The notes beneath the pieces are model-generated. The model worked only from the letters and a program-made list of their open reading frames with translations, was not told where the DNA came from and made no database searches. Below are positions 3,292-59,686 of a stretch of DNA of 64,000 nt, piece by piece. Origin of the DNA: a phage. Numbering within the stretch: the stretch's first letter is position 1; each line of letters begins with the position of its first letter. Made by a program: the position numbers and the translations under genes. The stretch lies in the sequence record PQ724394.1. One strand, 5' to 3'.

Positions 3292-3813
3292 TTAATAACC
3301 TCGGTCTTGACGAGCAAAGTTCTCGGCATTTTTCAGATAATACAGTTTAAAGATTTCTTCAGCAGTCAGACCAAGACCTTGGAACATATTCAGAACAAAG
3401 TGAAGAATATCAATCATCTCGAATTTAATTTCGAGCTGGTCTTCAGGAGACAACTCGTCAATACGACGGTTACGGAATTCACCGTGTTGAGCTTTCCAAG
3501 GCTTCCACACACTAGAGGCAGCTTTTTCGCCATTACTCATACCGCCAAGAGAAGTCAGCAGTTCACGGAATTCATCATCAATATAATCTTTCTGGTTGCG
3601 AAGCCAGTCGACAACTTGACCAGCCGTAGCTAGTTCATCGGGATTGGTGTTGAATTCTGATTTTTCAGTGGCCAGACGAACCTGTAATGATTTCTGCATA
3701 TCAAGCATAACTTGCAGAGGGTCTTTATCTTCGTGAATCAGAGCATTAAAATAAGCTTCTTCAGCTTTATCAACACCAGCAATAAGTTGAGAACATTCAT
3801 TAAAATGAGCCAT
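3292..3813 (-). CDS. 56: dCTP pyrophosphatase (dCTPase, MazG-like)
   Basis: 173 aa, same size and position as T4 gp56, adjacent to primase gene 61. Confidence 0.85.
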   Translation of the reverse strand: MAHFNECSQLIAGVDKAEEAYFNALIHEDKDPLQVMLDMQKSLQVRLATEKSEFNTNPDELATAGQVVDWLRNQKDYIDDEFRELLTSLGGMSNGEKAASSVWKPWKAQHGEFRNRRIDELSPEDQLEIKFEMIDILHFVLNMFQGLGLTAEEIFKLYYLKNAENFARQDRGY

Positions 3814-4105: not shown

Positions 4106-5130
4106 ATCTTGGAATATTTAGAAAGTCTCATTTTTGCCATTAGACCTTGGGCTATATTAGCTTTCATATATGCCAATACATCATTTATATCAGCTTTATC
4201 TTTCATAACCATATCATTTATATCTTTAGAAGGCCATGGAGCCTTGTCCCAGAATAGAACCCTTTCACCGGCATCAACTAGGCGTTGCATACGTTTAATT
4301 GTGTCAGGATGACGGGGTTCATTGTCCATTACCCAGGCACGAGTTTCTTTACATGGAACCATAGCCAAGTCCAACGACCCACCAGTAATTGCTATTGCGT
4401 TAGGTACGAATAATGAATCAATAGGACCTTCCATTACCCACACCAATTGACGTTCGTCAACTGTATCCATTCCATATATTTTTGTAGCTTGGTCATGAGC
4501 TTTTATTGTAATATATTTTTGTGGAGCATCTTTACGCAAGGCTCGACCCTGGAAACTTTCTATTTGTTTATCCTTATTGAAAATAGGAATAACCAAACGA
4601 GGCTCAGGCATTTCTTTAGAATAGGTCCCTGGATTCACTGAGTTAACCAATGCAGGCCATTCTTTAGTAAACCATAACCGATTCCATTTATTTTCAGGAA
4701 TGCACCGCAGAGTTACATACTTAATAATAGGATGGTCTTTCGGCATTCTATCTAATCGTTCACAGAAATTAAGCTTTTCGATTACGGGCATCTTAGCTTT
4801 AATTTTTTCAGATATCTCCACCTTAGGTGCAGCTTGTCTCCCGAACGATTGCTCTTTATGTTTCTCAAGAATATATTCGCGATATAAATCAGGCTCATAT
4901 TCGTATAGGTACTTCTTAATTCCTGCCGAATAATCACAGTTAAAACAGTGTAGCATTACAGAGCCGTCATTGGCCGGATAGGCCCAGAATCGAGCTTTGT
5001 TTTCATCTTTTTGGGAGTCACCACATACACGGCAACGACAATTTAATTTAAAATCACTACCAGTTACTTGTCTGAATTTAGGTTGGTAATTCAAGGCACG
5101 TACAGCAAATTCTCTATCGACATATGACAT
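4102..5130 (-). CDS. 61: DNA primase
   Basis: 342 aa, same length as T4 gp61; N-terminal Cys4 zinc ribbon (CRCRVC...CFNC) followed by a Toprim-like region. Confidence 0.95.
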   Translation of the reverse strand: MSYVDREFAVRALNYQPKFRQVTGSDFKLNCRCRVCGDSQKDENKARFWAYPANDGSVMLHCFNCDYSAGIKKYLYEYEPDLYREYILEKHKEQSFGRQAAPKVEISEKIKAKMPVIEKLNFCERLDRMPKDHPIIKYVTLRCIPENKWNRLWFTKEWPALVNSVNPGTYSKEMPEPRLVIPIFNKDKQIESFQGRALRKDAPQKYITIKAHDQATKIYGMDTVDERQLVWVMEGPIDSLFVPNAIAITGGSLDLAMVPCKETRAWVMDNEPRHPDTIKRMQRLVDAGERVLFWDKAPWPSKDINDMVMKDKADINDVLAYMKANIAQGLMAKMRLSKYSKI

Positions 5131-5346
5131 TATTTTTCCTTGGGCTCTAAATTAATAGAGCCATTATATCATTCGTTTTCGGATTTTTCTTTACGCTTTT
5201 TAGATGGGATTTGTTCAGGCCCTTTGTTGACGACTGCGCCCGAGGTAGTTCCGGAGGCAATATTAGATGGATTTCCACCTGCATCGCCTGCGACCATATC
5301 TTCGTTCATAACTTCTTTAAAAGATTTCATAGGCTCCTGGCCTTAT

Positions 5347-5538
5347 TTATATTACGAAAATAGCTTTATCACCATTTGCATCAGTGACTTCATATGTATC
5401 TTCGTGGTAAAGTGGAATAATCCAAGTTAAGCCATCACCTGCAATAATATGGATAGCTTCTTGGTCTTTTGATACGATTTCATATTCTTCGAATAATTCG
5501 AATACAGAAATCTTAGAGCCCGTACACATTGCAGTCAT
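5347..5538 (-). CDS. hypothetical protein (63 aa), 61.1-like position
   Basis: ORF in conserved position between 61 and 41. Confidence 0.35.
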   Translation of the reverse strand: MTAMCTGSKISVFELFEEYEIVSKDQEAIHIIAGDGLTWIIPLYHEDTYEVTDANGDKAIFVI

Positions 5539-5539
5539 A

Positions 5540-5980
5540 TTAACCTCGGTTCATAAAGGCATTAAAAATCTGGTCGTCGATTGAATAAACAGGAGCTTCC
5601 AGAATTTTCAACAGACTGTTTTTGATATACTTGCTAGGGATATCCATATTAACAGCATCGTTCAATTCATTGTCCGGGAGGATGTCTTTAAATTCAAACC
5701 CTTCAAACTCAACCTTGTCAGGAATACCATCAGCGAAAAAATAGACCAATTGGTGCATTGCATTACATGAAAATAATTTAGACCTCACCTCAATAAGTTC
5801 TTGCCAATGGTTTAATTCTCTGTTAAGAAGTTTATGGGCCATTGTAATTCTATCATCACTATCAACAAGAAAATAACCTAGGTACTGGTGGTCGTCGCTC
5901 CAAAACATCCTGTATGCTTGTGCATTTGGATTTTTACAACGAAGCTTTTTGATAACTAAATTTCTGTTAATCTTATTCAC
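5540..5980 (-). CDS. hypothetical protein (146 aa), 61.2-like position
   Basis: ORF in conserved position between 61 and 41. Confidence 0.45.
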   Translation of the reverse strand: MNKINRNLVIKKLRCKNPNAQAYRMFWSDDHQYLGYFLVDSDDRITMAHKLLNRELNHWQELIEVRSKLFSCNAMHQLVYFFADGIPDKVEFEGFEFKDILPDNELNDAVNMDIPSKYIKNSLLKILEAPVYSIDDQIFNAFMNRG

Positions 5981-6266
5981 CTGTCACCTCTTTAACAATA
6001 TTTTTGTTATCGAAATTAGCATCACAGTACAGAACATAGTTATACTGCATAACACCACTGGAAGCCAATTGGTCAGATACTTCTTTAACCATATCAGGAC
6101 GGTCGCGTTTAGTGATGTTCATGATATCAGCGTAAATCTGATGTTCAACTGACTCTTGGTCTGCAGTCATAGACCATTCACAAAGGTCTTTATCCAATCC
6201 AGCTGTAACCGGAGCTGTGCCACATGATGCTACTGTAAGGATTGCTGCGATTAATAACTTTTTCAT
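5973..6266 (-). CDS. sp: spackle periplasmic protein Sp (61.3)
   Basis: 97 aa with signal peptide; strong similarity to T4 Sp as I recall it (DKDLCEWSMTADQ...VMQYNYVLYCD); early promoter cassette upstream. Confidence 0.7.
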   Translation of the reverse strand: MKKLLIAAILTVASCGTAPVTAGLDKDLCEWSMTADQESVEHQIYADIMNITKRDRPDMVKEVSDQLASSGVMQYNYVLYCDANFDNKNIVKEVTGE

Positions 6267-6294
6267 TTTTAACTCCTCATTAGTGGATAGGTCT

Positions 6295-6324
6295 ATAGTA
6301 TCACTACCATAGACCGTTGTAAAC
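6295..6324 (-). promoter_or_regulatory. early promoter cassette
   Basis: Full conserved motif copy upstream of sp. Confidence 0.65.
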
Positions 6325-6325
6325 T

Positions 6326-6565
6326 TTATTTTAACGAATCTTCCAAATAAATTTTACGGAATTTACGTTTTGTCTGACGAATCTGACGCTTAGTAGGCTT
6401 CACAGGAAATTCGAAGAACTCTACGTATTCTTGTTCATAATCGTTGTGACCAACTGAAAGAACTAGTTCCCAGCTGCTTACGGTGCGTTGGATAAACATA
6501 TTATGCTTACCAAAAGATTTATTCCAAAAGGAGCTAGGGGTTGGCTTCATTAATACAATATTCAT
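6326..6565 (-). CDS. hypothetical protein (79 aa)
   Basis: ORF in the 61-41 interval. Confidence 0.4.
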   Translation of the reverse strand: MNIVLMKPTPSSFWNKSFGKHNMFIQRTVSSWELVLSVGHNDYEQEYVEFFEFPVKPTKRQIRQTKRKFRKIYLEDSLK

Positions 6566-6706
6566 TTATTCCTCGTCTTCATGTTTATGAGCAATTTCTT
6601 CGAATTCGCTATCGCAGTCTAAACAGGTTGCATTGTCCCAAGCATCAAATACTGCCTGGTCTTCACATACTGAACAACCACATACTACACATTCAACCTC
6701 TTCCAT

Positions 6707-6910
6707 TTAGATTTCCTCAATGCGGGCATCATATTCAAAAACTTTATTGTCATTAACAAAGGCTTTAACCAGTGCATTATTCACTTCTGCATACTGCACT
6801 GTAACCCATTCAATCATTTTTTGGTCACTAACATCCAGCGCAGTTTCTTTGGTAAACATATTACCGTTTTCAAACCAACCAATAAACACTACGTTCTCTA
6901 ATTTATACAT
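6707..6910 (-). CDS. dmd: Dmd-like antitoxin (discriminator of mRNA degradation, 61.5)
   Basis: 67 aa; resembles T4 Dmd (VVF.GWF.N..MFTKE...QYAEVNKALVKAF); conserved position just before gene 41. Confidence 0.6.
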   Translation of the reverse strand: MYKLENVVFIGWFENGNMFTKETALDVSDQKMIEWVTVQYAEVNNALVKAFVNDNKVFEYDARIEEI

Positions 6911-7240
6911 TTAGATTTCCTCACAGAAGGCCCATTCAGCGTGATAAACCGTAGCGCCTTTGGTATCATTTAAACAAACCACATCTACCGGAGCAATTAC
7001 ACGATAAAGACGAGGTTCTCCTCCCACTGAACGAGCTGCTCGTCCAGCATAAATCTTAGCCAAACCAATATCCTCAGTAAAGAACACACGGTTCAGGTTT
7101 TTCTTACGACCGGTTTCAGACAGAACTCCTGTTTCCTCAGGAGGACAAAGCATATTACCAATATTAGCAAAACTACAACTTCCGTGATAATACACTTTAT
7201 ATTCTGCTTTACAGTCGATGGTTTTCATTTTGTTCTCCAT
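6911..7240 (-). CDS. hypothetical protein; candidate Arr-family (H-G-S) mono-ADP-ribosyltransferase
   Basis: 109 aa; YYHGS at residues 17-21, downstream FFTED and PVD; early promoter cassette upstream; extra gene between dmd and 41 relative to T4. Confidence 0.5.
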   Translation of the reverse strand: MENKMKTIDCKAEYKVYYHGSCSFANIGNMLCPPEETGVLSETGRKKNLNRVFFTEDIGLAKIYAGRAARSVGGEPRLYRVIAPVDVVCLNDTKGATVYHAEWAFCEEI

Positions 7241-7253
7241 TAGTTGATAGGTC

Positions 7254-7283
7254 TATAGTATCATGCCTACAGGAGAAGTAAAC
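7254..7283 (-). promoter_or_regulatory. early promoter cassette
   Basis: Full conserved motif copy upstream of 6911-7240. Confidence 0.65.
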
Positions 7284-7292
7284 CCTTAAAAC

Positions 7293-7313
7293 AAAAAAAG
7301 GAGCCGAAGCTCC
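7293..7313 (-). terminator. intrinsic terminator after gene 41
   Basis: GGAGC-TTCG-GCTCC hairpin plus T7 run. Confidence 0.7.
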
Positions 7314-8753
7314 TTAAAATTTGATAGATGCTGCTAAATCGTCTAAATCGCTTCTATTAACACGTGACTGGCGATTGACCTCTGCTTGGCGGTTCATTTC
7401 ACCTGTGGCCTCACGAACAGTGTTCACTGGGCCTGGGTTAGAATCGTCTTCAACTTCATACCAACGTTGGTTTCCTTTCTTAACACCAATCTTAAATTTG
7501 TTGTAGTAGCTCTTATCGCCATAACGAGATTTAAGCTGCTTAATCATCTGCATACCCATCTGAGCAAACTCTTCTGTCTCGACCACACCTAACATGAAGT
7601 CTGCAGTATGTGCAATACCAAAGGATTCAGCGATATCAGCCATATCGATTTCGGCCGCAACGTTCGCACCACGAGTAGTCTGGGCTGCTGTCCATAGCAA
7701 TAATTTCTTCTCTACTGCAAGACCACGTAGTTCTTCGGCAACCATCTTAATCAATCCGTAACTGTTTTCAGAGAAAACTTTCGTACGGGATGAAGCACAG
7801 ATAGCCAAGTAGTCGACGATAACGACCTGTGGGACAAAGTTTTGTTTGAGCTTGTATTCGTTTAATAATGCACGGAATGTATCGGCATTAGCACCACCAG
7901 TAGGATATTGTTTAATCTTTAAACGACCTAAAGTAGCAGTTGAACGCCACTTATCCATCTTAGCTTTATATTCAGGCCATGAGACGTGACCATCGTCAAT
8001 ATCATCCAGTGATACATCTAGAAGGTTGGCATCGATACGCTTAGCACATACTTCCTCTGCCATCTCCATGGAGATATAAAGAACATCATAACCGGATTGA
8101 AGGTAATCAGCAGCCAATGAACACAGTCCAAGAGACTTACCTACGTTTGTTCCTGCCAACAATACGTTTTCAGTACCAAACTCAGCGCCACCCTTGGTAA
8201 TCTTATTCAGAATATTAAGACGGAATGGAACCTTACGGGCTTTATCAGAATAACTTTTAAAACGTTCTTCATAGTCATCCATCCAGTCATGGCCTAATTC
8301 AGAATCGAAACAAATCGATAATGCATCTCGCATGATATCCGGAATGGCACCAATACCTGGGAGTTTTCTATTTTGTTGCTCAACCGGAAGGTCGGCATTA
8401 GTTTGAATTTCAATAATTTTTGAAGTGGCATTATACATCGCTGCCTTCTGAACATATTTCTCTGTCTCTTTAACCAACCATTCTTGGTCTTCAGGGCCTG
8501 CATTCAGAGAATTTAAAAGCTCTTTAGCTCCTTGATGTTCAACTTCTGAAAGGGTGCTGTTATCTAATGCAATACTCAAAGCATTTTTAGAAGGCACCGC
8601 ATTATATTCATTGACATGTTTTTTGATTTCTTTGAAAAGGGTCTTTGCCGGACCCTGGTCAAAATAAGAATCATTCATATAAGGCCAGACCTTAGTGAAA
8701 TAATCACTATTGCCTAGCAGTTGAGCCAAAATAGTTTCTACCACTTCCACCAC
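7314..8753 (-). CDS. 41: replicative DNA helicase (DnaB-like)
   Basis: 479 aa; Walker A GTNVGKS; N-terminus matches T4 gp41; hairpin terminator immediately downstream. Confidence 0.95.
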   Translation of the reverse strand: MVEVVETILAQLLGNSDYFTKVWPYMNDSYFDQGPAKTLFKEIKKHVNEYNAVPSKNALSIALDNSTLSEVEHQGAKELLNSLNAGPEDQEWLVKETEKYVQKAAMYNATSKIIEIQTNADLPVEQQNRKLPGIGAIPDIMRDALSICFDSELGHDWMDDYEERFKSYSDKARKVPFRLNILNKITKGGAEFGTENVLLAGTNVGKSLGLCSLAADYLQSGYDVLYISMEMAEEVCAKRIDANLLDVSLDDIDDGHVSWPEYKAKMDKWRSTATLGRLKIKQYPTGGANADTFRALLNEYKLKQNFVPQVVIVDYLAICASSRTKVFSENSYGLIKMVAEELRGLAVEKKLLLWTAAQTTRGANVAAEIDMADIAESFGIAHTADFMLGVVETEEFAQMGMQMIKQLKSRYGDKSYYNKFKIGVKKGNQRWYEVEDDSNPGPVNTVREATGEMNRQAEVNRQSRVNRSDLDDLAASIKF

Positions 8754-9067
8754 CTCTTAGATTTAATTTTATCCAGTTCTTCTTGTATTTGCATTGTAAC
8801 ACATTTTTCTACATGAAGCGCTAGCTCTTCTTTTCGGTCTTCGGAAGGCGTTCCGAAATCAACCGACACTTTTCCATCTTTCTCAATAACAATATTCATC
8901 ACATAAACGATGTGAGCAGTGCCATCAGGCAATGTAAGCATAATTTCCTGCTTAACAGAACCCATTGACTTACGGATTATATCTAACGATTTCTCATAAT
9001 AACGAGGGTCGCTAGGACCCTCTTCAGTATCTTTAACAAAATTATCTAAATCAGATAAATCAGTCAT
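8738..9067 (-). CDS. 40: gp40-like head vertex assembly chaperone
   Basis: 109 aa ORF in conserved position between uvsX and 41. Confidence 0.5.
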   Translation of the reverse strand: MTDLSDLDNFVKDTEEGPSDPRYYEKSLDIIRKSMGSVKQEIMLTLPDGTAHIVYVMNIVIEKDGKVSVDFGTPSEDRKEELALHVEKCVTMQIQEELDKIKSKRWWKW

Positions 9068-10232
9068 CTAAATCCATCTCTTCTAAATCGTTTTCAATAT
9101 CTGCAGCACTTTGAGCGTCACCACTCAATTTAACTGCAACATTCTTAGAGACACGAGAGTTAATAAGGTCGTTCACGGCATCATCGACTTCTTTAATAGA
9201 ATTAATTGCACCAAGCTTATACTTATTCTCGATTGCTTCACGGAACGGGGCATGTTTAAACAGCGGTCCCCAGAACTCGACACAATCGGTAGCTTTAGCA
9301 CGCCATGATTTTTCTTCTTGAACCATTTCACCCGTGGTTTCATCAAGGAATGCACGATTATACCAGCCGGCTTTAGGTTTCACGACAAAGCCAATATCAG
9401 TAGCCATTTCGAGCAGACCACTAAATGGGTCGATACCACCTTCAAAGTTCACAGTAATTGGGAACGTTGATTTCTCTTTAACAGTACGAGATTTTTCGGC
9501 CTTCAGGGTGAAGTCATAACCAGTGAGCTCGGTACCATCTTTAACCTGACGTTTAGAGATAAAGAACACAGTAGAAGCAGAGTACAGAATACCAGTACCA
9601 CCACCCATAATCTCTTTAGGATACATTCCACCAATTTCCATAGCCGTATGGTTAATTGCTACACAAGGAATATCCTTGATAGTCAGATAAGGTGTTACGA
9701 TACGGAACAGAGATTTCAGAGACTTAGCTCGAGTCATATCACCTACAACTTTCTCGTTCAAAGCATCTTCGGTTTCTTTCTTAGAAGCGGTGTTACCGAT
9801 GGAGTCGATAAAGATAATAACCTTTTCGCCACGAGTAATTTCTTCTAATTGGTTGGTCATGTCAACCTTCAGTTGTTCGACTGACTGGATTGGCGTATGA
9901 ACCACACGTTCCAGGTCAACACCCATTGAACGGAAATAAGATTCTGAAGCACCGAACTCAGAGTCATAGAACAAGCAAATTGCGTCTGGATATTTCTTCA
10001 TATATGCCGCAACCATAGTTAATCCAAACAACGTTTTAAAGTGTTTAGACGGTGCAGCAAAGATTGTCAAACCTGATTGTAAGCCTGCATTCAACGCACC
10101 ACCCAATGCAATATTAAGCATAGGAATACGAGTAGGAACTTCGTCACGACCATTAAACAATTTAGATTTGGTCAGATCGGCAGTCATTTTAGAAGTAGAA
10201 GCTTTAATCAAACGGGATTTTAAATCGGACAT
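9060..10232 (-). CDS. uvsX: UvsX recombinase (RecA-like)
   Basis: 390 aa; N-terminus MSDLKSRLIKASTSK nearly identical to T4 UvsX. Confidence 0.95.
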   Translation of the reverse strand: MSDLKSRLIKASTSKMTADLTKSKLFNGRDEVPTRIPMLNIALGGALNAGLQSGLTIFAAPSKHFKTLFGLTMVAAYMKKYPDAICLFYDSEFGASESYFRSMGVDLERVVHTPIQSVEQLKVDMTNQLEEITRGEKVIIFIDSIGNTASKKETEDALNEKVVGDMTRAKSLKSLFRIVTPYLTIKDIPCVAINHTAMEIGGMYPKEIMGGGTGILYSASTVFFISKRQVKDGTELTGYDFTLKAEKSRTVKEKSTFPITVNFEGGIDPFSGLLEMATDIGFVVKPKAGWYNRAFLDETTGEMVQEEKSWRAKATDCVEFWGPLFKHAPFREAIENKYKLGAINSIKEVDDAVNDLINSRVSKNVAVKLSGDAQSAADIENDLEEMDLDD

Positions 10233-10310
10233 TATATTTTTCCATAGGCACCATTATATTTTTCTCACGTTTTTAAGATAGGGTAATTATATCACTTCAC
10301 AGTTACAGCA

Positions 10311-11204
10311 TTAAAGGACCACGTCCTCATAACGTGGCATTTCGTACTCAGAATGAATATGGGCACCGAAATAAATGAATTCAGCCAGACCAGGATGAAA
10401 TACTAAACCCGGGTTTTCATGATAAATGATATGTGGCCTTGATTTCAGAATCTGATAATATTCAACCTTACTCGGTTTGAATTTAACAATCTCTACGTCA
10501 GGACGATAGTCTTCACGCTTAAATGAATCATTCGGGTCGGTGATATAAAGACGAGCACCTTCAGCGGCAGCTTGGTCTACAACTCTTTCGAATTGATAGC
10601 ACTTATCCGAAATACGGAATGGATGGAAAATACCATCAATTTTAATAGGCGCTAGACCTTCAGAGTAACGCTCAATTACTGCAGGATTAATTACCTTTTG
10701 GTCTACAAAAATCTTATCAGAGGATGCACCTCGTGACACCAGGACGTCTTTCTGGCATTGATTCAGGACTGTAGTATAAAGTGAACGTTCAACTGAAGCC
10801 ACATCAATATCAATGAACTCGTCGATATAATAACGAGGAACTTCAGGGTCCATTGTGATATTAAAGTTGAATTGTACGGTATGAGCACCATCATAACCGG
10901 TGATATCGGTTACCAGTCCTGAGCAATCATAGTATTCGATTAGTGAATCGACTACAAACTCATTTTCAGACCAGAAATGTTTACGGGTTTCATAAGCATT
11001 TTCTTTATACCAAAGTGGTACGAAATTCAGTTCTGGGAATAATTCAATGCATTCTTTGATATCGCTCGAATTTCTAGGATAAGCCAGATAATCACCTGGA
11101 CGAGCACGATTTAAATGGAGTTGAAAATTACCGTCCTTAAGGACGGCATATTCACCTGTTTCGTAACTACGCATACTGAAAATAGGAACGATAAACAAAC
11201 TCAT
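10311..11204 (-). CDS. hypothetical protein occupying the beta-glucosyltransferase position; candidate hmC sugar transferase
   Basis: 297 aa; no recognisable similarity to T4 beta-gt; first gene of a coupled cluster with the gene-42 homolog. Confidence 0.55.
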   Translation of the reverse strand: MSLFIVPIFSMRSYETGEYAVLKDGNFQLHLNRARPGDYLAYPRNSSDIKECIELFPELNFVPLWYKENAYETRKHFWSENEFVVDSLIEYYDCSGLVTDITGYDGAHTVQFNFNITMDPEVPRYYIDEFIDIDVASVERSLYTTVLNQCQKDVLVSRGASSDKIFVDQKVINPAVIERYSEGLAPIKIDGIFHPFRISDKCYQFERVVDQAAAEGARLYITDPNDSFKREDYRPDVEIVKFKPSKVEYYQILKSRPHIIYHENPGLVFHPGLAEFIYFGAHIHSEYEMPRYEDVVL

Positions 11205-11899
11205 TTCAGGAAACCTCGGACGTAGTCAAAATCACGTTCAAACACGTGTGCACTTACCATGGTGTGGGAATATGTACCTAAACCGACACCACACTGTTCA
11301 GCAATAAATGCCATCAGTTTACCCTGCAGATAGAAATCCAGCTGCATAACAACAGCACAGTTCTGTGAACGCATATGGGTATGTGCATACAAACGTCCGT
11401 CACGAATATAATACGTTACCGAATCGGTGCAAGGATATTCTAAGGATTCGTCAGAATCAAGGAGGGCTTGGTCTTGTTCTTGGAGAATCTGGAACACAAC
11501 TCTTCGCGAGTTAGCCTTTTCTTTAAGCTCTTTAAGTAGGGCTGGGAGTTGGGCCACAATTCGAGGTCCGTAGAAAGTGTTGAAGTTTGCAGGCAATACG
11601 TCACTTTTCGGCTTATCAATGAACTTAGCAACATTAGGGTATTCCTTAAATGCTTCGGCAGCGTCAGTACCACCAGAAATCATAAATTTCCAAAAGGATT
11701 CGGCATATTCATAACTAATACGATTGATACGTGGGTCGGTGAATTTATAGGTGCTTGCATCCAGTACTTCTACCGAAGCAGAACCAATTTCATAACAACG
11801 TCCGATACGAGAATCAACTGCAAACTGTGGAGCTTCCAGGATTTCTTCGTTCATTTGTTTAAATGCATTTTCAAAACTAACAGCGGTAATGTGTTTCAT
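11201..11899 (-). CDS. 42: dCMP hydroxymethylase (thymidylate-synthase superfamily), diverged
   Basis: 232 aa; TS-like fold motifs (catalytic Cys in YPCTDS, SRRVVF, Asp at the cytosine-specifying position); position of T4 gene 42. Confidence 0.75.
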   Translation of the reverse strand: MKHITAVSFENAFKQMNEEILEAPQFAVDSRIGRCYEIGSASVEVLDASTYKFTDPRINRISYEYAESFWKFMISGGTDAAEAFKEYPNVAKFIDKPKSDVLPANFNTFYGPRIVAQLPALLKELKEKANSRRVVFQILQEQDQALLDSDESLEYPCTDSVTYYIRDGRLYAHTHMRSQNCAVVMQLDFYLQGKLMAFIAEQCGVGLGTYSHTMVSAHVFERDFDYVRGFLK

Positions 11900-12432
11900 T
11901 TATTCACCTTATTTTCAATATATTCGTTCAGACGTTTTAATTCTACCATATCAACATTAAGCAAATTATTATGGCCGTCATGATTTAAGATTTTAAACAC
12001 GTTTTCAAAACATGTTTCGTATTGCCGGATAGTTAGGTTGAACTCATCTTTGGTTAATTTAATAAGGTCGTCTTCGAAGTCTTCGTCTAACGGGTTACGA
12101 GTTAAAATAACCTCGATAACGTTAAATTCGGATTTAAACCCTTTCCAATCTTCCAGTTCTACATAAGGGTCCATTTCACCACGAAGGAATCCTGAGTAAA
12201 CAATATTACTTGGATAACCACGGTCAAGGATATAAACGAAATTAGGGTCTAAAAACTTATACAGAGTTTCAACTAAAGCCTTATCGTTATCAGTTCCTAA
12301 TGAAATACACTTGCCATTAATCTTTTTAGGAAAATCAATAAGGCGGTATTTCTTATTGGATAACAGATTTTTAATTAAAGTGGACTTCCCGGAATTATCC
12401 GGGCCGTCTATAACAATGATTTTTGGATTCAT
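11896..12432 (-). CDS. P-loop kinase (dNMP/thymidylate-kinase-like)
   Basis: 178 aa; Walker A IVIDGPDNSGKST; stop/start overlap with flanking genes. Confidence 0.65.
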   Translation of the reverse strand: MNPKIIVIDGPDNSGKSTLIKNLLSNKKYRLIDFPKKINGKCISLGTDNDKALVETLYKFLDPNFVYILDRGYPSNIVYSGFLRGEMDPYVELEDWKGFKSEFNVIEVILTRNPLDEDFEDDLIKLTKDEFNLTIRQYETCFENVFKILNHDGHNNLLNVDMVELKRLNEYIENKVNK

Positions 12433-12827
12433 GGATGATAGGCCTTATAACTATCAAGAGTTCCTTCACGAACCATTTCTTTAAAGTGGTCAGGACGGAT
12501 TGCTCGGTCATCGATGATAAAAGTATAACTCGGCTTGTGTGTAAGCAAATTGTGATATTTCAATCCAATCTTTTCAAGGTTCTTAACCAATGCAGGAACT
12601 ACTTCAACCAAGATTCGACCTGGGCCACATGAAGTCATGCCACGGGCGGTGAACAATGTAATCTCGTACCCTTCATCATAAAGCTTATTAATCATGGACA
12701 CCATTTCGGTGTCCGGTTTAAAGTTCTCATAATCACGGTCATGGTTCCAAATCGTGATTGTGTTATCGATATCAAAACATAAATGCGGCTTATTTTCTAC
12801 TCGATGCGACATTAAATTTTCTTCCAT
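12429..12827 (-). CDS. HAD-superfamily phosphatase (small)
   Basis: 132 aa; motif I FDIDNTIT, motif II LFTAR, motif III/IV K...IIDD. Confidence 0.6.
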   Translation of the reverse strand: MEENLMSHRVENKPHLCFDIDNTITIWNHDRDYENFKPDTEMVSMINKLYDEGYEITLFTARGMTSCGPGRILVEVVPALVKNLEKIGLKYHNLLTHKPSYTFIIDDRAIRPDHFKEMVREGTLDSYKAYHP

Positions 12828-14515
12828 TGTTTGTGGAGTTCAGTAGAACCTGTAGGTTTATATTTTACACCAGTTTCCTGGTCAAGCAAAACCCACTTAT
12901 CAGGACAACGAGTAATAATTTGGGCCGTGATAGGGTCACGGACTTCATCGACAAATTCACCCGTAATAAGCTTACGCTTACGAGGATGCCGCTTCAGCAG
13001 CACACTCAGTTGGTACAAACCGTTATAATAAGCACCCAGAGCTTTCAGAGGGTTATTCTTAAAGTAACCTGCCAGCGCCATCCAAATAACAGCAATCCAG
13101 AGCTTGTGCTTAAATGTGCACATAGGGATATCGTCTAAAGGCATAACCTTTTCGATATCAACGAATACACGAGTTCCGTTACGAGTTAATCCACCCCATA
13201 GAGGGTCTGAGTTAAATTTATCATAGCCATCGATAGAATAAAGCACCTTAGCTTCATCATAAATCGCAGGGCCTTTAGAACTATTACCGAAATAACCGCG
13301 TGGGTCGATGATTTTAATATCACCTTCGTCCGACAGCATAATATTACTATAGTGCGGGTCACCATGAATAAGTTGGTACGGTTCTTTATGTTCAGACAGA
13401 ATTTCTAGTGCATGGCGGAGAAGTTTTTCAGGGTCGCCTACTTTGAAATCGTTAACATGGGTAATACCCTGTGGAGCAAAGCCTTCAATCAATCCAGCAA
13501 TAGAAGCATTACGAATAAGGACCTTGTCCAATACTTCTTTCTTAACATCGGAATACCATTGTTCATCGGAAGGATTATCGATAGTTCCACCGAATGAACG
13601 TAATGCACTAATGACCTTATAAACCATGAGGACTTTAGTTTCTTTGGACATAAACCGGTAGGCATCTGCCATGGTACGACCAAAGATACGTTCCATTTTA
13701 ATGAATTCGCCTGGAGAAAAGTCTACAATGCTAGGAACGAATTCAGAATCAATAGAATTATACCAATTGATTTCTTTAGATTGAATTTCTTTACCTAATT
13801 CGTTAGTTGGTACTTTAATAGCTAGATTCTCGGTGAATTCTAATTTATTAAATTCACGATTAATTTCAGATTCTTCATGGGCCTTAGCCAGTTTCAATTT
13901 GTCACCGACATCAACTACAAAGTCTAGTTTACGTTCGGTCAAATAGACCATTGAATCCAGGTTATCAGCAAGGTCTTCACCATAATTAGAACGGTCGAAA
14001 CCTGTCCAGTTAGCCACCTGATACAAACCAACTACACCGCCACCAGTACCAATTTCACGTAAGTACGGTTCTTCAAATGTAAAACGACAGTCGGTCCCAT
14101 AGGTATAACAGTAGTCGTTACCCCATTCAACTTTATGACCGATAGGAATGATGTCACACCAGTTAAACAAGACATTATGGCCAATGATATCTTCGGCAAT
14201 GCAATCGATAGCATGGGCCGAACCATTAGCAACATCAACGTTACGAATAGTGAATTTAGGCTTATCACCAGTAATCATGTTAATGGATTTAATATAGCCT
14301 TTAACGAGGTCGTTAAATTTGCTGTGAATAACCAGAATAATTTCATCCGATTGGTTACTATACAAATCATACAAATGCTTTAATACCGTATGTTGTTTGT
14401 AGTTAACCAATACCTTCGGGATTTCGTTAGTAATTGGATACAACCGTGAGCCAAGACCTGCGCCTAAAATAACAACCTTTTTCATTATCTGTTCCTCAAG
14501 TGAATGTAGGTACAT
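12812..14515 (-). CDS. bifunctional nucleotidyltransferase / protein-kinase-like (APH/choline-kinase fold) enzyme
   Basis: 567 aa; N-terminal ILGAGLGSRL nucleotidyltransferase signature; C-terminal HGDPHYSNIM...IIDPRG kinase motif. Confidence 0.75.
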   Translation of the reverse strand: MYLHSLEEQIMKKVVILGAGLGSRLYPITNEIPKVLVNYKQHTVLKHLYDLYSNQSDEIILVIHSKFNDLVKGYIKSINMITGDKPKFTIRNVDVANGSAHAIDCIAEDIIGHNVLFNWCDIIPIGHKVEWGNDYCYTYGTDCRFTFEEPYLREIGTGGGVVGLYQVANWTGFDRSNYGEDLADNLDSMVYLTERKLDFVVDVGDKLKLAKAHEESEINREFNKLEFTENLAIKVPTNELGKEIQSKEINWYNSIDSEFVPSIVDFSPGEFIKMERIFGRTMADAYRFMSKETKVLMVYKVISALRSFGGTIDNPSDEQWYSDVKKEVLDKVLIRNASIAGLIEGFAPQGITHVNDFKVGDPEKLLRHALEILSEHKEPYQLIHGDPHYSNIMLSDEGDIKIIDPRGYFGNSSKGPAIYDEAKVLYSIDGYDKFNSDPLWGGLTRNGTRVFVDIEKVMPLDDIPMCTFKHKLWIAVIWMALAGYFKNNPLKALGAYYNGLYQLSVLLKRHPRKRKLITGEFVDEVRDPITAQIITRCPDKWVLLDQETGVKYKPTGSTELHKQWKKI

Positions 14516-14545
14516 TATACACTATTTTTAATAAATTTCTATTGC

Positions 14546-15046
14546 TTAAATCTTATCTTTACCGTATTCCATGCACTGTTCTACTGCAGCAGGCACTTTG
14601 GTCTTAAGCTTGTTGATTTGTTTCTTATAATCACGAGCCTTATCGAAGCTCTCGGTTTCGAGCATTTCGTAATAACGAGCCTCGTGGACAGAAATCTGTA
14701 AATTGATATGGTTTACACACATAGCATACAGTTTCTGCTTTTTGTACAAATCATCTTGGCGCTTCATTTCTGCCTGGTGTTTGGCTAGTACCGCTTCACG
14801 CTTAGACTCTTGTTCACGTTGGAATTCTATTTCCCTTTGAGCATATTTTGCACAGTTATTACCACATTGATTATTAGCTCGGGTATACACAAGTCCAGAA
14901 CCGGCATGGAATTTCATCTCGCCGTCGAATTGTTTCTGTTCAGCTGCAATACGAGCTTTACCAACTTCATCAGCCGAAACTGCATCACCGTATTGGACTG
15001 CGCAACCTGATAGGAGCATACTCATTGCGATAATTAACTTTTTCAT
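14546..15046 (-). CDS. lipoprotein (166 aa)
   Basis: Signal peptide with lipobox LLSGC; Lys/Glu-rich coiled region; adjacent to imm. Confidence 0.6.
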   Translation of the reverse strand: MKKLIIAMSMLLSGCAVQYGDAVSADEVGKARIAAEQKQFDGEMKFHAGSGLVYTRANNQCGNNCAKYAQREIEFQREQESKREAVLAKHQAEMKRQDDLYKKQKLYAMCVNHINLQISVHEARYYEMLETESFDKARDYKKQINKLKTKVPAAVEQCMEYGKDKI

Positions 15047-15053
15047 AATATCC

Positions 15054-15191
15054 TCAATTAAAACAGTTATACTTAATTTGTGCTATAAGAATAATCCATC
15101 CCATGATTAATGTTGGAATCATTGGAGGAATTGCCACTGCCCAATAAACGGTAAAGGCAGCCATTATAAGAAATAAAATAATTATCTTCAT
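15054..15191 (-). CDS. small hydrophobic membrane peptide (45 aa)
   Basis: ATG overlaps imm stop (ATGA); translated by hand; its stop overlaps the RBS of the lipoprotein gene. Confidence 0.35.
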   Translation of the reverse strand: MKIIILFLIMAAFTVYWAVAIPPMIPTLIMGWIILIAQIKYNCFN

Positions 15192-23521: not shown

Positions 23522-23771
23522 CGTTATAAGCATCCTTGATGCATGATTCAGCCATATGAATTAATGTTTCTGGAGTATCATCTACCATTACATTAAAGCT
23601 AAATTCCACAGCCCAATCGGTAGCAACATAAACTTTAATAAGCTCGCCGGTATCACGAGTGCTCACGGCTTCAAACCAGAACTTAATTGTACTAGGTTGG
23701 CCATCATCGTCAATAACTATACAGTCGTGTTCCAGTTCAAGTCCTGATTTTTTGAATTCATCTAAAGTCAT
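23508..23771 (-). CDS. hypothetical protein (87 aa)
   Basis: ORF between 47 and 46. Confidence 0.45.
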   Translation of the reverse strand: MTLDEFKKSGLELEHDCIVIDDDGQPSTIKFWFEAVSTRDTGELIKVYVATDWAVEFSFNVMVDDTPETLIHMAESCIKDAYNDEDF

Positions 23772-24790
23772 CGTGTAACCTCATTATAAAGTTGTGCGGC
23801 CATAGTCTTAAGGGCTTTAACGTCTTCTTCAGTGTGGCCATCAGGAAGGGCGTCGATATAATCATACATCATATCCAAGAGGGATTTAACTTCATCTTCC
23901 TCTTCAGAATCATCGATATCAACACTATTATCTACCTTAGACACAATACGTAAAGAGTGAACAACCTTTTCAAGCTCTGATTCGAACTTAGTAAGGCCGT
24001 CATCGATTTTATCGACTATAACACGAACTGCGATATTTGTAAAATCTTTGTAATCGATAGTCGCATTAGGATAATGAATCTTACGATGCCAACAGGTTTC
24101 ATTAATGATGAAATCCATTTTATGAGTTTCGGTATCGAAAATCCAGAAACCACGAGGGTCGTTCTCATCGCCTGCAGTAAGGGTCCATGGAGTACCAATG
24201 TACTTGACGTTTGCTGCATCAGAAATAGTATGGAAGTGGCCTGACCAAACTTGCTTATACTTTTTAAGGAAATCAGGTTCTAAACCATGGGATTTCATTC
24301 CTTTATAGAAATAGAAACCATTTAATTCCCAATGGCCAACACAGAAATCTGCTGTGGTATTTTTGATATGGTCCATGATATCGGTCGTGTTTTCTTCACA
24401 CATCCATGGAATCAAATCAATTTCGGTGCCATCAAAGTTAACCGTAGTAGGTTTCTCAATAACCTTGATATGGTCATATTTACCGAGAACTTCAGAAGCA
24501 GCATTAGGAGTCAAGGTATTTTTGTAGTGCATATCATGATTACCAACAATGGTATACATGGTAATGCCATTAGCTTTAAGCAAATCAGAGATTTCGCGAG
24601 CGAATTCCATACACTTATGGGTAATTGCTTTACGAACGTCAAAGATATCACCGTACTGAATCCATACAGTAATGCCATTTGCTTTAGAATAATTGATAGC
24701 GTCTTGGATACCTTGACGTTGGATATTTTGTACCCACACATCATCGGCCTTAACTCCAAGGTGCCAGTCACCTGTGTTTAATATTTTCAT
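23768..24790 (-). CDS. 47: recombination endonuclease subunit (SbcD/Mre11-like phosphoesterase)
   Basis: 340 aa from MKILNTGDWHLG; metallophosphatase motifs (GDxHD-like, GNHD). Confidence 0.9.
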   Translation of the reverse strand: MKILNTGDWHLGVKADDVWVQNIQRQGIQDAINYSKANGITVWIQYGDIFDVRKAITHKCMEFAREISDLLKANGITMYTIVGNHDMHYKNTLTPNAASEVLGKYDHIKVIEKPTTVNFDGTEIDLIPWMCEENTTDIMDHIKNTTADFCVGHWELNGFYFYKGMKSHGLEPDFLKKYKQVWSGHFHTISDAANVKYIGTPWTLTAGDENDPRGFWIFDTETHKMDFIINETCWHRKIHYPNATIDYKDFTNIAVRVIVDKIDDGLTKFESELEKVVHSLRIVSKVDNSVDIDDSEEEDEVKSLLDMMYDYIDALPDGHTEEDVKALKTMAAQLYNEVTR

Positions 24791-24976: not shown

Positions 24977-24993
24977 AAAGGAGCCTAAGCTCC
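24974..24993 (-). terminator. intrinsic terminator
   Basis: GGAGC-TTAG-GCTCC hairpin plus T6 run. Confidence 0.65.
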
Positions 24994-25430
24994 TTTACCA
25001 ATTAATACACCATACAGAGGTTCATGAGAAGACCTGAACTTGATAGGCTTATAGGTAATAGTACCTTCATTTTCTGCTTTAATACGAGCGGCTTCAAATT
25101 GAAGTATCATCTCATTTTTGTCAGATTTAATCTTATCAAAATCCATCGAATTCGTCATTCATAAAACCTCTTAAACTTTTTCGTATTCGTCATTCATAGC
25201 TTAAAAATCCGGATGTTCGTCTTTCATTAGCCACCTGTCCATGTTATCATCGTTGCCACCACTTCTTAAGTTGATGTGAATCCACCCAAACCTTGGCTAC
25301 AGGCTCAATCCGAAAAATTTCGTCGGAATATTGCCCGACCATTTTATATTCGGTTTCAGTCTGCTTAATACAAATATTACCGTATGAGCGAAGTCTGAAG
25401 GCGGCTCCAATAAGAAGCCGTTTAAAGGGT

Positions 25431-58924: not shown

Positions 58925-58932
<8 letters not shown>

Positions 58933-59686
58933 TTTTATTTCCTAATAATTTATCAATAGTAGTGTATAGTTCAGAAAGAGTGCCGTTATTTTCAACAACA
59001 ACGTCACCAGGTAAAATTGGTAGACCCGCTTCAGTGATGTGCGAGTCTTGTACTTGACCGGTTTCAGCGCGAACTACATGAATAATCGTAGCACCCATCG
59101 CTCTGAGCGAATCAATTTCGTGTGTTTGACGAACATCAGGTACGACATAGTATTTCGCATCAGAGTATATTTTATCAAAATAGTCTAAAGCGAACAACTT
59201 AACCCAATACATCTTATCAAATTGGTTAACAATAATATCAGTCCCAAGGGTCTGCATGAGACGACGTACTGACCAATTGTTATTTTTATTTATTACTTCA
59301 AATAGCTGGTCTTTTGTTTCTTCAGACAGATATTGGACCGGGGTAAGACCATAATGATACGCGGTAAGAACATCAATTCCCGGAATAGGAAGGATATTAT
59401 TCAGCTTAACAATAGCATGTTCAAAAATATCAACCACATCATACGGTTTTAAAGGAATGATTTCTTCACGGTCATAACCGATACCTTCAAAACAATTAAA
59501 ATCTAATTTAGGCATATAGCTACGGTCGAATACAGGGTCATCAGATATGTATTCATAAGCTTCAGCCAGATACTTTTTAATAGGACCTGCGAGTTGGAAT
59601 TTTACGGAATCCATATTTTCAATTACATAGTTAGCAACGGTATCCTTACCGCTACGTTTGATTCCTACAATTGATATTAGTTTCAT
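58925..59686 (-). CDS. 1: deoxynucleoside monophosphate kinase
   Basis: P-loop GIKRSGKDT; similarity to T4 gp1. Confidence 0.9.

Follow-up and report, generated by a model that had tools for sequence, protein, structure and literature searches.

A five-gene cluster between uvsX and imm

The DNA analyzed here (sequence record PQ724394.1; its full 64,000 nucleotides are referred to as the window) belongs to a Dhakavirus, and by megablast it is approximately 98% identical over the whole region to JS98, JS10, CLB_P2 and other Dhakaviruses. A cluster of five genes, all on the minus strand and labelled RB69 orf047c-, 048c-, 045c-, 051c- and 052c-like in the JS98 record, is located upstream of uvsX (9060-10232) and downstream of imm and the DNA polymerase gene. 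The cluster probably represents a minimal phage pathway for arabinosyl-5-hydroxycytosine, with a predicted mono-arabinosyl product. Statements about absence from the whole genome rest on the complete genome of JS98, which is 98% identical.

In order of position, the first gene (10311-11204) encodes a 297-aa GT-B glycosyltransferase (GT), orthologous to RB69 gp46:47 and a candidate for the base-proximal arabinofuranosyltransferase. It is followed by the gene for a 232-aa member of the thymidylate synthase (TS) superfamily (11201-11899), an orthologue of RB69 gp48 and predicted 5-hydroxy-dCMP synthase, that is, a flavin- and O2-dependent dCMP C5-hydroxylase. The remaining genes encode a 178-aa P-loop nucleotide kinase with a thymidylate kinase (TMK) fold (11896-12432; orthologue of RB69 gp45), a small 132-aa HAD phosphatase that is a predicted arabinose-1,5-bisphosphate 5-phosphatase (12429-12827; orthologue of RB69 gp51 and HY126 AfhF), and a 557-aa fusion of a nucleotidyltransferase with an APH-like kinase, here called Bif (12812-14485; orthologue of RB69 gp52:53 and HY126 AfhE). 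Neighboring genes overlap by 4 nt (ATGA) at three boundaries and by 16 nt at the fourth, and the cluster is therefore considered to be translationally coupled.

A preliminary description, made from the sequence alone, had already reported five coupled genes. All five open reading frames (ORFs) were recovered where it had placed them, and the motifs that it quoted (DGPDNSGKST, DIDNT, FTAR, K...IDD, LGAGLGSRL, HGDPHYSN and IIDPRG) are all present in the translations. It counted five genes between uvsX and imm; the five are there, although ORFs of 166 and 36 aa also occur before imm. T4, which was said to have only beta-gt and 42 at this locus, has segA there as well. The proposal that the cluster is a DNA hypermodification pathway replacing T4 glucosylation is well founded: RB69 has orthologues of five of the five proteins, and neither T4 alpha-gt nor beta-gt has a significant tblastn match in the window or in complete JS98. 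As had been stated, there is no alpha-gt between genes 47 (23771-24790) and 55, where a search with the T4 protein finds nothing; a-gt.2 is present at 24988-25158. A suggested BLAST comparison with RB69, JS98 and T4 thus returned the RB69 orthologues and none of the T4 glucosyltransferases. The 297-aa protein is modeled with a transferase fold, the JS98 genome lacks alpha-gt and beta-gt, and a role in ordinary metabolism is contradicted by the data below.

The observation is confirmed, its interpretation is supported in part, and the system itself is already known. Both the gene set and the pathway were published in 2025-2026, with Dhakaviruses named explicitly (PMC13326640), and are not new. 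The value of the analysis for this window is corrective: the modified base is predicted to be 5-hydroxycytosine rather than 5-hydroxymethylcytosine (hmC), and the public annotations are mostly wrong.

Predicted components of the pathway

The TS homologue was initially taken for a diverged dCMP hydroxymethylase, an assignment that has to be abandoned. Although Pfam PF00303 places it above cut-off in the TS superfamily (E = 3.6e-13), it shares 80% identity with RB69 gp48 over 231 aa but only 25% with T4 gp42 over 159 aa, and it matches the PDB entries 9iqu, 9iqc and 9ir2 at E = 2e-125. RB69 gp48 is an experimentally verified TS-homologous dCMP 5-hydroxylase that uses flavin and O2 (PMC13326640); the oxygen on 5-hydroxy-dCMP originates from O2, and flavin is the cofactor (Lee et al., NAR 2026, PMC13326640). 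In Escherichia coli ThyA numbering, alignment gives the catalytic C146, L143E, N177D (the position of dCMP specificity) and D169N, which upholds the earlier observation of a catalytic cysteine and of an aspartate at the cytosine-specifying position. At 143, 146, 169 and 177 the residues are those of RB69 gp48, whereas T4 gp42 retains Asp169. Asparagine at the position of ThyA Asp169 is diagnostic of dCMP hydroxylases and is present in all those tested (PMC13326640). The TS homologue therefore has neither Asp169 nor the close similarity to gp42 that would characterize an enzyme of the T4 type, and tblastn finds no other gp42 homologue in the window or in complete JS98. By sequence comparison it is an orthologue of 5-hydroxy-dCMP synthase and not a dCMP hydroxymethylase, and the acceptor base is accordingly expected to be 5-hydroxycytosine, with an ether link to the sugar, instead of hmC.

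This also bears on the statement, in the preliminary description, that arabinosyl-hmC has been reported for RB69-type phages. The link to RB69 stands by orthology, but the chemistry has been revised. RB69 DNA was initially reported in 2018 to contain arabinosyl-hmC (PMC6024577); its structure has since been revised to a sugar ether-bonded to 5-hydroxycytosine (Lee et al., PMC13326640), and the arabinosyl-5-hydroxycytosine chemistry has been independently confirmed (PMC13390438). In each of two distant contigs that resemble jumbo phages, a gene of the Flavodoxin_2 family, similar to FMN reductases, is located near a gene for a D169N hydroxylase (L009, 6426-6932; L010, 1-523), a neighbor that fits the requirement for reduced flavin. 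No flavodoxin-like reductase homologue is found in the window or in complete JS98, and a host flavin reductase would therefore be needed.

Two further genes of the window, distant from the cluster, are likely to serve the nucleotide steps. A gp56-type dCTPase of 173 aa (3292-3813, minus strand), 90% identical to JS98 gp56, would supply dCMP and remove dCTP, a role assigned by analogy with the T4 paradigm and with Table 1 of PMC13326640. The gp1-type dNMP kinase (58925-59686, minus strand) is 99.6% identical to JS98 gp1, and its RB69 orthologue, gp159, converts 5-hydroxy-dCMP (5hodCMP) to the diphosphate 5hodCDP (PMC13326640).

The sugar would be activated by Bif and the HAD phosphatase. Pfam identifies an NTP_transferase domain (E = 3.4e-8, residues 13-110) and an APH domain (E = 9.5e-6, residues 356-427) in Bif, with LGAGLGSRL (GxGxRL) in the N-terminal part and HGDPHYSN (HGDxxxxN) and IIDPRG (IDxxG) in the C-terminal part; for the kinase domain, no solved homologue was found. 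Over the full length, identity to RB69 amounts to 44% in the N-terminal part (gp53) and 41% in the C-terminal part (gp52), and Bif as a whole is 45% identical to the HY126 and LC53 proteins and 82% identical to that of a Marfavirus. Both domains reside in one polypeptide, which is the AfhE-type architecture of RB69 gp52:53 and DLP3 gp82. The HAD protein, 62% identical to RB69 gp51, carries the motifs DIDNT, FTARG (TAR) and K...IIDD, matches PDB 9iqw (E = 5e-54) and 1xpj (E = 4.5e-12), and scores under the cut-off of the capsule-biosynthesis phosphatase model NCBIfam TIGR01689. The entry 9iqz, which neighbors 9iqw, is titled 'phage HY126 glycosyltransferase', and this title ties the 9iq-series accessions to the phage of He et al.

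In HY126, according to the account of He et al. given in PMC13326640, the bifunctional AfhE converts arabinose-5-phosphate to arabinose-1,5-bisphosphate, and the HAD phosphatase AfhF takes off the 5-phosphate to leave arabinose-1-phosphate. The N-terminal domain of AfhE then forms UDP-arabinofuranose (He et al., Nat Chem Biol 2026, as described in PMC13326640). By orthology, Bif and the HAD phosphatase of the window match the enzymes that lead from arabinose-5-phosphate to UDP-arabinofuranose. The salvage of a free sugar, of the Fkp or LicA/LicC kind, which had been suggested as the logic of the cluster, is replaced by this analogy with a route that starts at arabinose-5-phosphate and passes through the 1,5-bisphosphate.

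The 297-aa protein returns nothing in sequence-only searches (Pfam, NCBIfam, PADLOC, and PDB by phmmer and with a 57-sequence profile), and its fold was revealed by structure prediction alone. The AlphaFold model (predicted local distance difference test, pLDDT, of 95.3) is a confident GT-B fold with two Rossmann-like domains, resembling GT4. The protein is 70% identical to RB69 gp47 and 64% identical to gp46, which are one gene broken by a sequencing error. Its gene directly follows that of the TS homologue, with an ATGA overlap, and its family is present in 353 of 50,697 phage records. BLASTP against beta-gt is not significant, as the preliminary description had held. That description further proposed a transferase acting on hmC; the transferase part agrees with the modeled fold, and the acceptor has to be changed to 5-hydroxycytosine. 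The 297-aa protein is thus a candidate for the first, base-proximal arabinosyltransferase. Such a role is suggested for the family because LC53 and Thanatos, both reported to be mono-arabinosylated, each carry this GT, and LC53 does so without a gp3-type enzyme.

Several genes of better-known clusters are missing. No tblastn match to RB69 gp55, the arabinose-5-phosphate isomerase with a SIS domain, occurs at E <= 1 in the window or complete JS98, matches to gp50 (U32 family) and to gp3 (the second transferase) are not significant in either, and none of the three is annotated. RB69 gp49 is absent from the window, and there is no chorismate mutase homologue in the window or complete JS98. At the position of RB69 gp3, JS98 has only an unannotated gap of approximately 590 bp. 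Since the 297-aa protein is the sole transferase in the genome, as judged from the window and JS98, the predicted product is mono-arabinosyl-5-hydroxycytosine. In the absence of an isomerase, arabinose-5-phosphate would be supplied by the host enzymes KdsD or GutQ, through which E. coli produces this compound for the synthesis of 3-deoxy-D-manno-octulosonic acid (KDO).

The role of the P-loop kinase is less apparent. It had been grouped with the phosphatase and the nucleotidyltransferase in an NDP-sugar pathway; the fusion enzyme and the HAD protein do belong there, but the kinase has a TMK fold and travels with the transferase and the hydroxylase. Its structural model (pLDDT 85.9) rests on a shallow alignment, as the homologue search gave only nine proteins. 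It is 38% identical to RB69 gp45, reaches 18 bits where the curated dTMP kinase model (NCBIfam TIGR00041) requires 83, and is not above the equivalog cut-off of either that model or the (d)CMP kinase model TIGR00017. In two distant phage-like contigs of approximately 360-380 kb, genes for a D169N TS homologue, the GT and the kinase are adjacent, and one of these contigs also encodes the isomerase, the fusion enzyme and the HAD protein. A third contig (L011) encodes a TMK-like P-loop protein, the GT and a protein 50.5% identical to RB69 gp50, with no TS homologue within 17 kb. Because this adjacency is kept in distant contigs, the kinase appears to go with the transferase and not with the sugar genes, and the 178-aa protein is probably a nucleotide kinase outside sugar activation.

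Since 5hodCMP is already taken care of by the gp1-type kinase, no task is left for the extra kinase, and this favors an arrangement that we nonetheless consider unlikely, in which the first arabinose is added before replication. The GT-B enzyme would glycosylate 5-hydroxy-dCMP, the TMK-fold kinase would rephosphorylate the resulting arabinosyl-5-hydroxy-dCMP, which may be too bulky for the gp1 dNMP kinase, and the polymerase would incorporate the glycosylated dNTP. The experiments of Lee et al. cannot separate addition at the nucleotide level from addition at the DNA level, and single GTs are inactive on DNA containing 5-hydroxycytosine (5hoC-DNA; PMC13326640); moreover, the kinase adjoins the GT in distant phages, including those whose hydroxylase and sugar genes are located at other sites. 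However, the T4 precedent is post-replicative, and a pentosylated dCTP would need to be tolerated as a substrate by the polymerase. Glycosylation before replication, if true, would be a mode without precedent in T-even phages.

With addition to DNA, the pathway would begin at the dCTPase, which by the T4 paradigm converts dCTP to dCMP. The TS homologue would then hydroxylate C5 of dCMP with flavin and O2, as shown for RB69 gp48, to give 5-hydroxy-dCMP. The gp1 kinase would form the diphosphate, as shown for its RB69 orthologue, and host NDP kinase the triphosphate, from which the phage polymerase would build DNA with 5-hydroxycytosine in place of cytosine; the TMK-fold kinase would act on some modified pyrimidine nucleotide. 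Host KdsD or GutQ would presumably provide D-arabinose-5-phosphate, which the C-terminal kinase domain of Bif may phosphorylate at C1 and from which the HAD phosphatase may take off the 5-phosphate, after which the N-terminal nucleotidyltransferase domain would join arabinofuranose-1-phosphate and UTP into UDP-arabinofuranose, each by analogy with HY126 AfhE and AfhF. The 297-aa transferase would finally move arabinofuranose from UDP to the 5-hydroxyl. DNA modified in this way would be shielded from restriction and CRISPR nucleases. Arabinosylated 5-hydroxycytosine blocks type II restriction enzymes, the Brig1 glycosylase and type I CRISPR-Cas, and it leaves phages open to type IV enzymes such as BrxU. 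The pathway is relevant to phage biology and to phage therapy, and JS98-type Dhakaviruses have served as therapeutic coliphages. No smaller gene set than that of the Dhakaviruses has been seen to date, which makes their version a convenient minimal system for the transferase step, for the substrate of the TMK-like kinase and for the dependence on host arabinose-5-phosphate and oxygen.

Related clusters and alternative readings

Dhakaviruses are among the genera with a cluster syntenic to that of RB69, and Marfaviruses are placed likewise (Lee et al., PMC13326640). The RB69 cluster comprises gp45-gp55 plus gp3, and its counterparts in HY126 are the Afh proteins. In these two Mosigviruses the cluster occupies the same locus as in the window, between uvsX and the DNA polymerase gene, with the same D169N signature. 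All five window proteins have orthologues there, at identities of 80% for the hydroxylase, 64-70% for the GT, 62% for the HAD protein, 41-45% for the fusion enzyme and 38% for the kinase. The window lacks the RB69 isomerase gp55, the U32 protein gp50, gp49 and the second transferase gp3. The kinase gene is between the HAD and TS genes in the window but after the GT gene in RB69 and HY126. RB69 DNA carries a mixture of mono- and di-arabinose, whereas a single arabinose is expected here.

Among mono-arabinosylating phages, the best calibrated model is Serratia phage LC53 (Winklervirus), which has orthologues of all five window proteins (42-78% identity) and whose DNA is reported to contain mono-arabinosyl-hydroxy-cytosine (Mahler et al. 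2025, bioRxiv 10.64898/2025.12.19.695335, as cited). The one GT in its locus belongs to the 297-aa family; there is no gp3-type GT, which was found in none of the Serratia phages. Unlike the window, LC53 encodes an isomerase, a U32-family protein and a chorismate mutase. Thanatos, with one syntenic transferase, is likewise mono-arabinosylated (Lee et al., PMC13326640). Closest in layout is the Klebsiella Marfavirus PhiKpNIH-6, which also lacks the isomerase and has the same gene order as the window (Bif-HAD-kinase-...-TS-GT), with identities of 82% for Bif, 82% for HAD, 76% for the kinase, 87% for TS and 69% for GT. Two genes that the window has lost are retained there: a U32 gene, whose product shares 86% identity with RB69 gp50, and, between the kinase and TS genes, a small ORF resembling chorismate mutase.

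The T4 hmC system occupies the same genomic position and follows the same logic, with a dCTPase, a TS-superfamily enzyme acting on dCMP, a dNMP kinase and GT-B enzymes using a UDP-sugar. The C5 chemistry differs, being folate-dependent hydroxymethylation in T4 and, by prediction, flavin/O2 hydroxylation in the window. T4 draws on host UDP-glucose, whereas the window phage would have to produce its own UDP-arabinofuranose, and the T4 alpha-gt and beta-gt have no homologues here.

Several points weigh against a mono-arabinosyl product. The phage lacks the arabinose-5-phosphate isomerase found in 276 of 50,697 phage records (the gp3-type transferase occurs in 212), and a literature search turned up no chemical data on the DNA of any Dhakavirus, so that sugar identity and number are predictions. 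Single GTs were inactive on 5hoC-DNA, and the first transferase has never been reconstituted (Lee et al., PMC13326640); the 300-aa Thanatos homologue TH1_063 formed UDP-xylose from xylose-1-phosphate and UTP in vitro (PMC12838424). Finally, Bif, the kinase and the HAD protein of the isomerase-less phages (window 11896-14485) form a separate lineage, and substrate specificity could differ for that reason. Between window and Marfavirus, Bif is 82% identical, and between HY126 and LC53, which have the isomerase, 73%, while identity between the two groups is 45-48%. The corresponding values are 76%, 68% and 38-46% for the kinase and 82%, 82% and 62-68% for HAD. There is no comparable split in TS (87%, 80% and 76-80%) or GT (69%, 60% and 64-68%). 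The split of the sugar module may reflect a cassette swap, or else a functional shift or a different sugar. It could be, then, that the isomerase-less Dhakaviruses and Marfaviruses use the same scaffold with a pentose other than arabinose, Bif activating, for example, host ribose-5-phosphate, and the altered position of the kinase, after HAD instead of after GT, would also suit this reading. We regard it as rather unlikely. E. coli itself makes arabinose-5-phosphate, the even divergence of the two Bif domains is what lineage drift or a cassette swap would produce, and the GT, 64-69% identical across both groups, would yet have to take a new sugar; in addition, both genera belong to one syntenic family according to Lee et al. 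(PMC13326640). Divergence from RB69 is not concentrated in one Bif domain, which would have hinted at a shift in specificity (44% identity N-terminal, 41% C-terminal).

The Thanatos result raises the further question of whether the 297-aa protein is itself an NDP-pentose pyrophosphorylase, with some unrecognized protein performing the transfer to the base. Transferase activity has not been demonstrated for this family, but a canonical nucleotidyltransferase domain is already present in the cluster, no other GT-like gene was found in the genome, and the reverse reaction of a GT-B enzyme could account for the activity, which makes this reading very unlikely. The TH1_063 result is in any case difficult to square with a GT-B fold and may be a reverse or side reaction. 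Persistence of hmC chemistry, in which a diverged hydroxymethylase would give arabinosyl-hmC or another glycosyl-hmC, would be in keeping with the superfamily, with the catalytic cysteine and Asp177 shared with T4 gp42, with the 2018 RB69 paper (PMC6024577) and with several public records that annotate a dCMP hydroxymethylase. Set against the much greater identity to a verified hydroxylase than to gp42 (80% versus 25%), Asn169 where gp42 has Asp, the revised RB69 structure and a genome without another gp42 homologue, it is highly improbable. Scarcely credible is the view, encouraged by RefSeq and other records naming thymidylate synthase, thymidylate kinase and similar, that these are ordinary enzymes of nucleotide metabolism (thymidylate synthase, dTMP kinase and 5'-nucleotidase) with no part in DNA modification. 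The proteins miss the curated NCBI cut-offs (20-62 bits against the 108-427 required by TS models, and 18 against 83 for dTMP kinase), separate td and gp1 genes are present in the genome, and the cluster genes are conserved together with the GT and the sugar-activation fusion in distant phages. The arabinosyl-5-hydroxycytosine pathway remains the reading that we prefer.

The U32 proteins of the related clusters are of separate interest. RB69 gp50 and its homologues belong to the Peptidase_U32 family (Pfam E = 7e-11), and gp50 has a C-terminal CX4CX3CX2C cluster. The genes are located at 12444-13954 in LC53 (L012), 4907-6309 in the Marfavirus (L013), 6493-7662 in RB69 (L002) and 9049-10125 in contig L011; in the first two the neighboring gene encodes a chorismate mutase (CM_2, E = 1.7e-11), and in L011 the GT. 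Prephenate is the product of chorismate mutase. In E. coli, the U32 protein RlhA, which has C-terminal cysteines, requires prephenate to form 5-hydroxycytidine in rRNA (PMC5727448). Lee et al. call gp50 just a 'sugar or heterocycle reductase' (PMC13326640), and a literature search found no paper linking phage U32 proteins to O2-independent 5-hydroxycytosine. Given the likeness to RlhA, the chorismate mutase neighbors and the cysteine cluster of gp50, phage U32 proteins could, by analogy, provide a second, O2-independent route to 5-hydroxycytosine.

Flanking sequence and annotation

The fusion enzyme was originally described as a protein of 567 aa. The ORF and its domains are as described, but the length is probably not. 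The mechanical ORF (12812-14515, minus strand) has 567 codons from the first ATG, at 14515, which falls within a TATAAT hexamer resembling a -10 element, whereas the second ATG, 30 nt downstream at 14485, is preceded by a GAGG Shine-Dalgarno sequence. The alignment to PHROG 4098 begins at residue 11 of the 567-aa ORF, and the JS98 annotation has 557 aa. Together these features make 14485 the most likely start, giving a protein of 557 aa; ORF callers that choose the first ATG would append 10 spurious residues. The hexamer is part of a promoter-like site directly upstream of the cluster (14514-14541, minus strand; TAGAAA-16 nt-TATAAT, 10 of 12 consensus matches). This site is weak evidence for a promoter, because a promoter/terminator consensus scan of the region gave 21 promoter-type sites, close to the 18.5 in shuffled sequence.

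Between the cluster and imm, the 166-aa ORF (14546-15046, minus strand) is lipoprotein-like, with the signal MKKLIIAMSMLLSGC; it belongs to PHROG 1754 and is not obviously a pathway member. LC53 has a 29%-identical homologue in the same position, between the polymerase gene and the modification cluster. The 36-aa ORF follows at 15057-15164. PADLOC gave no meaningful match for the cluster, and its identity as a defense system was rejected.

Public labels on the five genes are inconsistent and mostly wrong, including 'thymidylate synthase', 'dCMP hydroxymethylase', 'thymidylate kinase' and 'phosphoheptose isomerase', as well as 'capsule biosynthesis protein', 'RNA polymerase binding protein' and 'capsid and scaffold protein'. 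On the downstream side of the cluster, JS98 and JS10 have approximately 125 bp of extra DNA between the GT stop codon and uvsX (window 10233-10310; JS98 L001 6034-6235). This DNA, which is missing from the window and from some other Dhakaviruses, encodes a hydrophobic protein of 43 aa, MLGPLLLFIGLLLFSFGALLLLVWLEKREVRKIVDKAINRGIK, whose ORF is unannotated and overlaps the GT stop codon.

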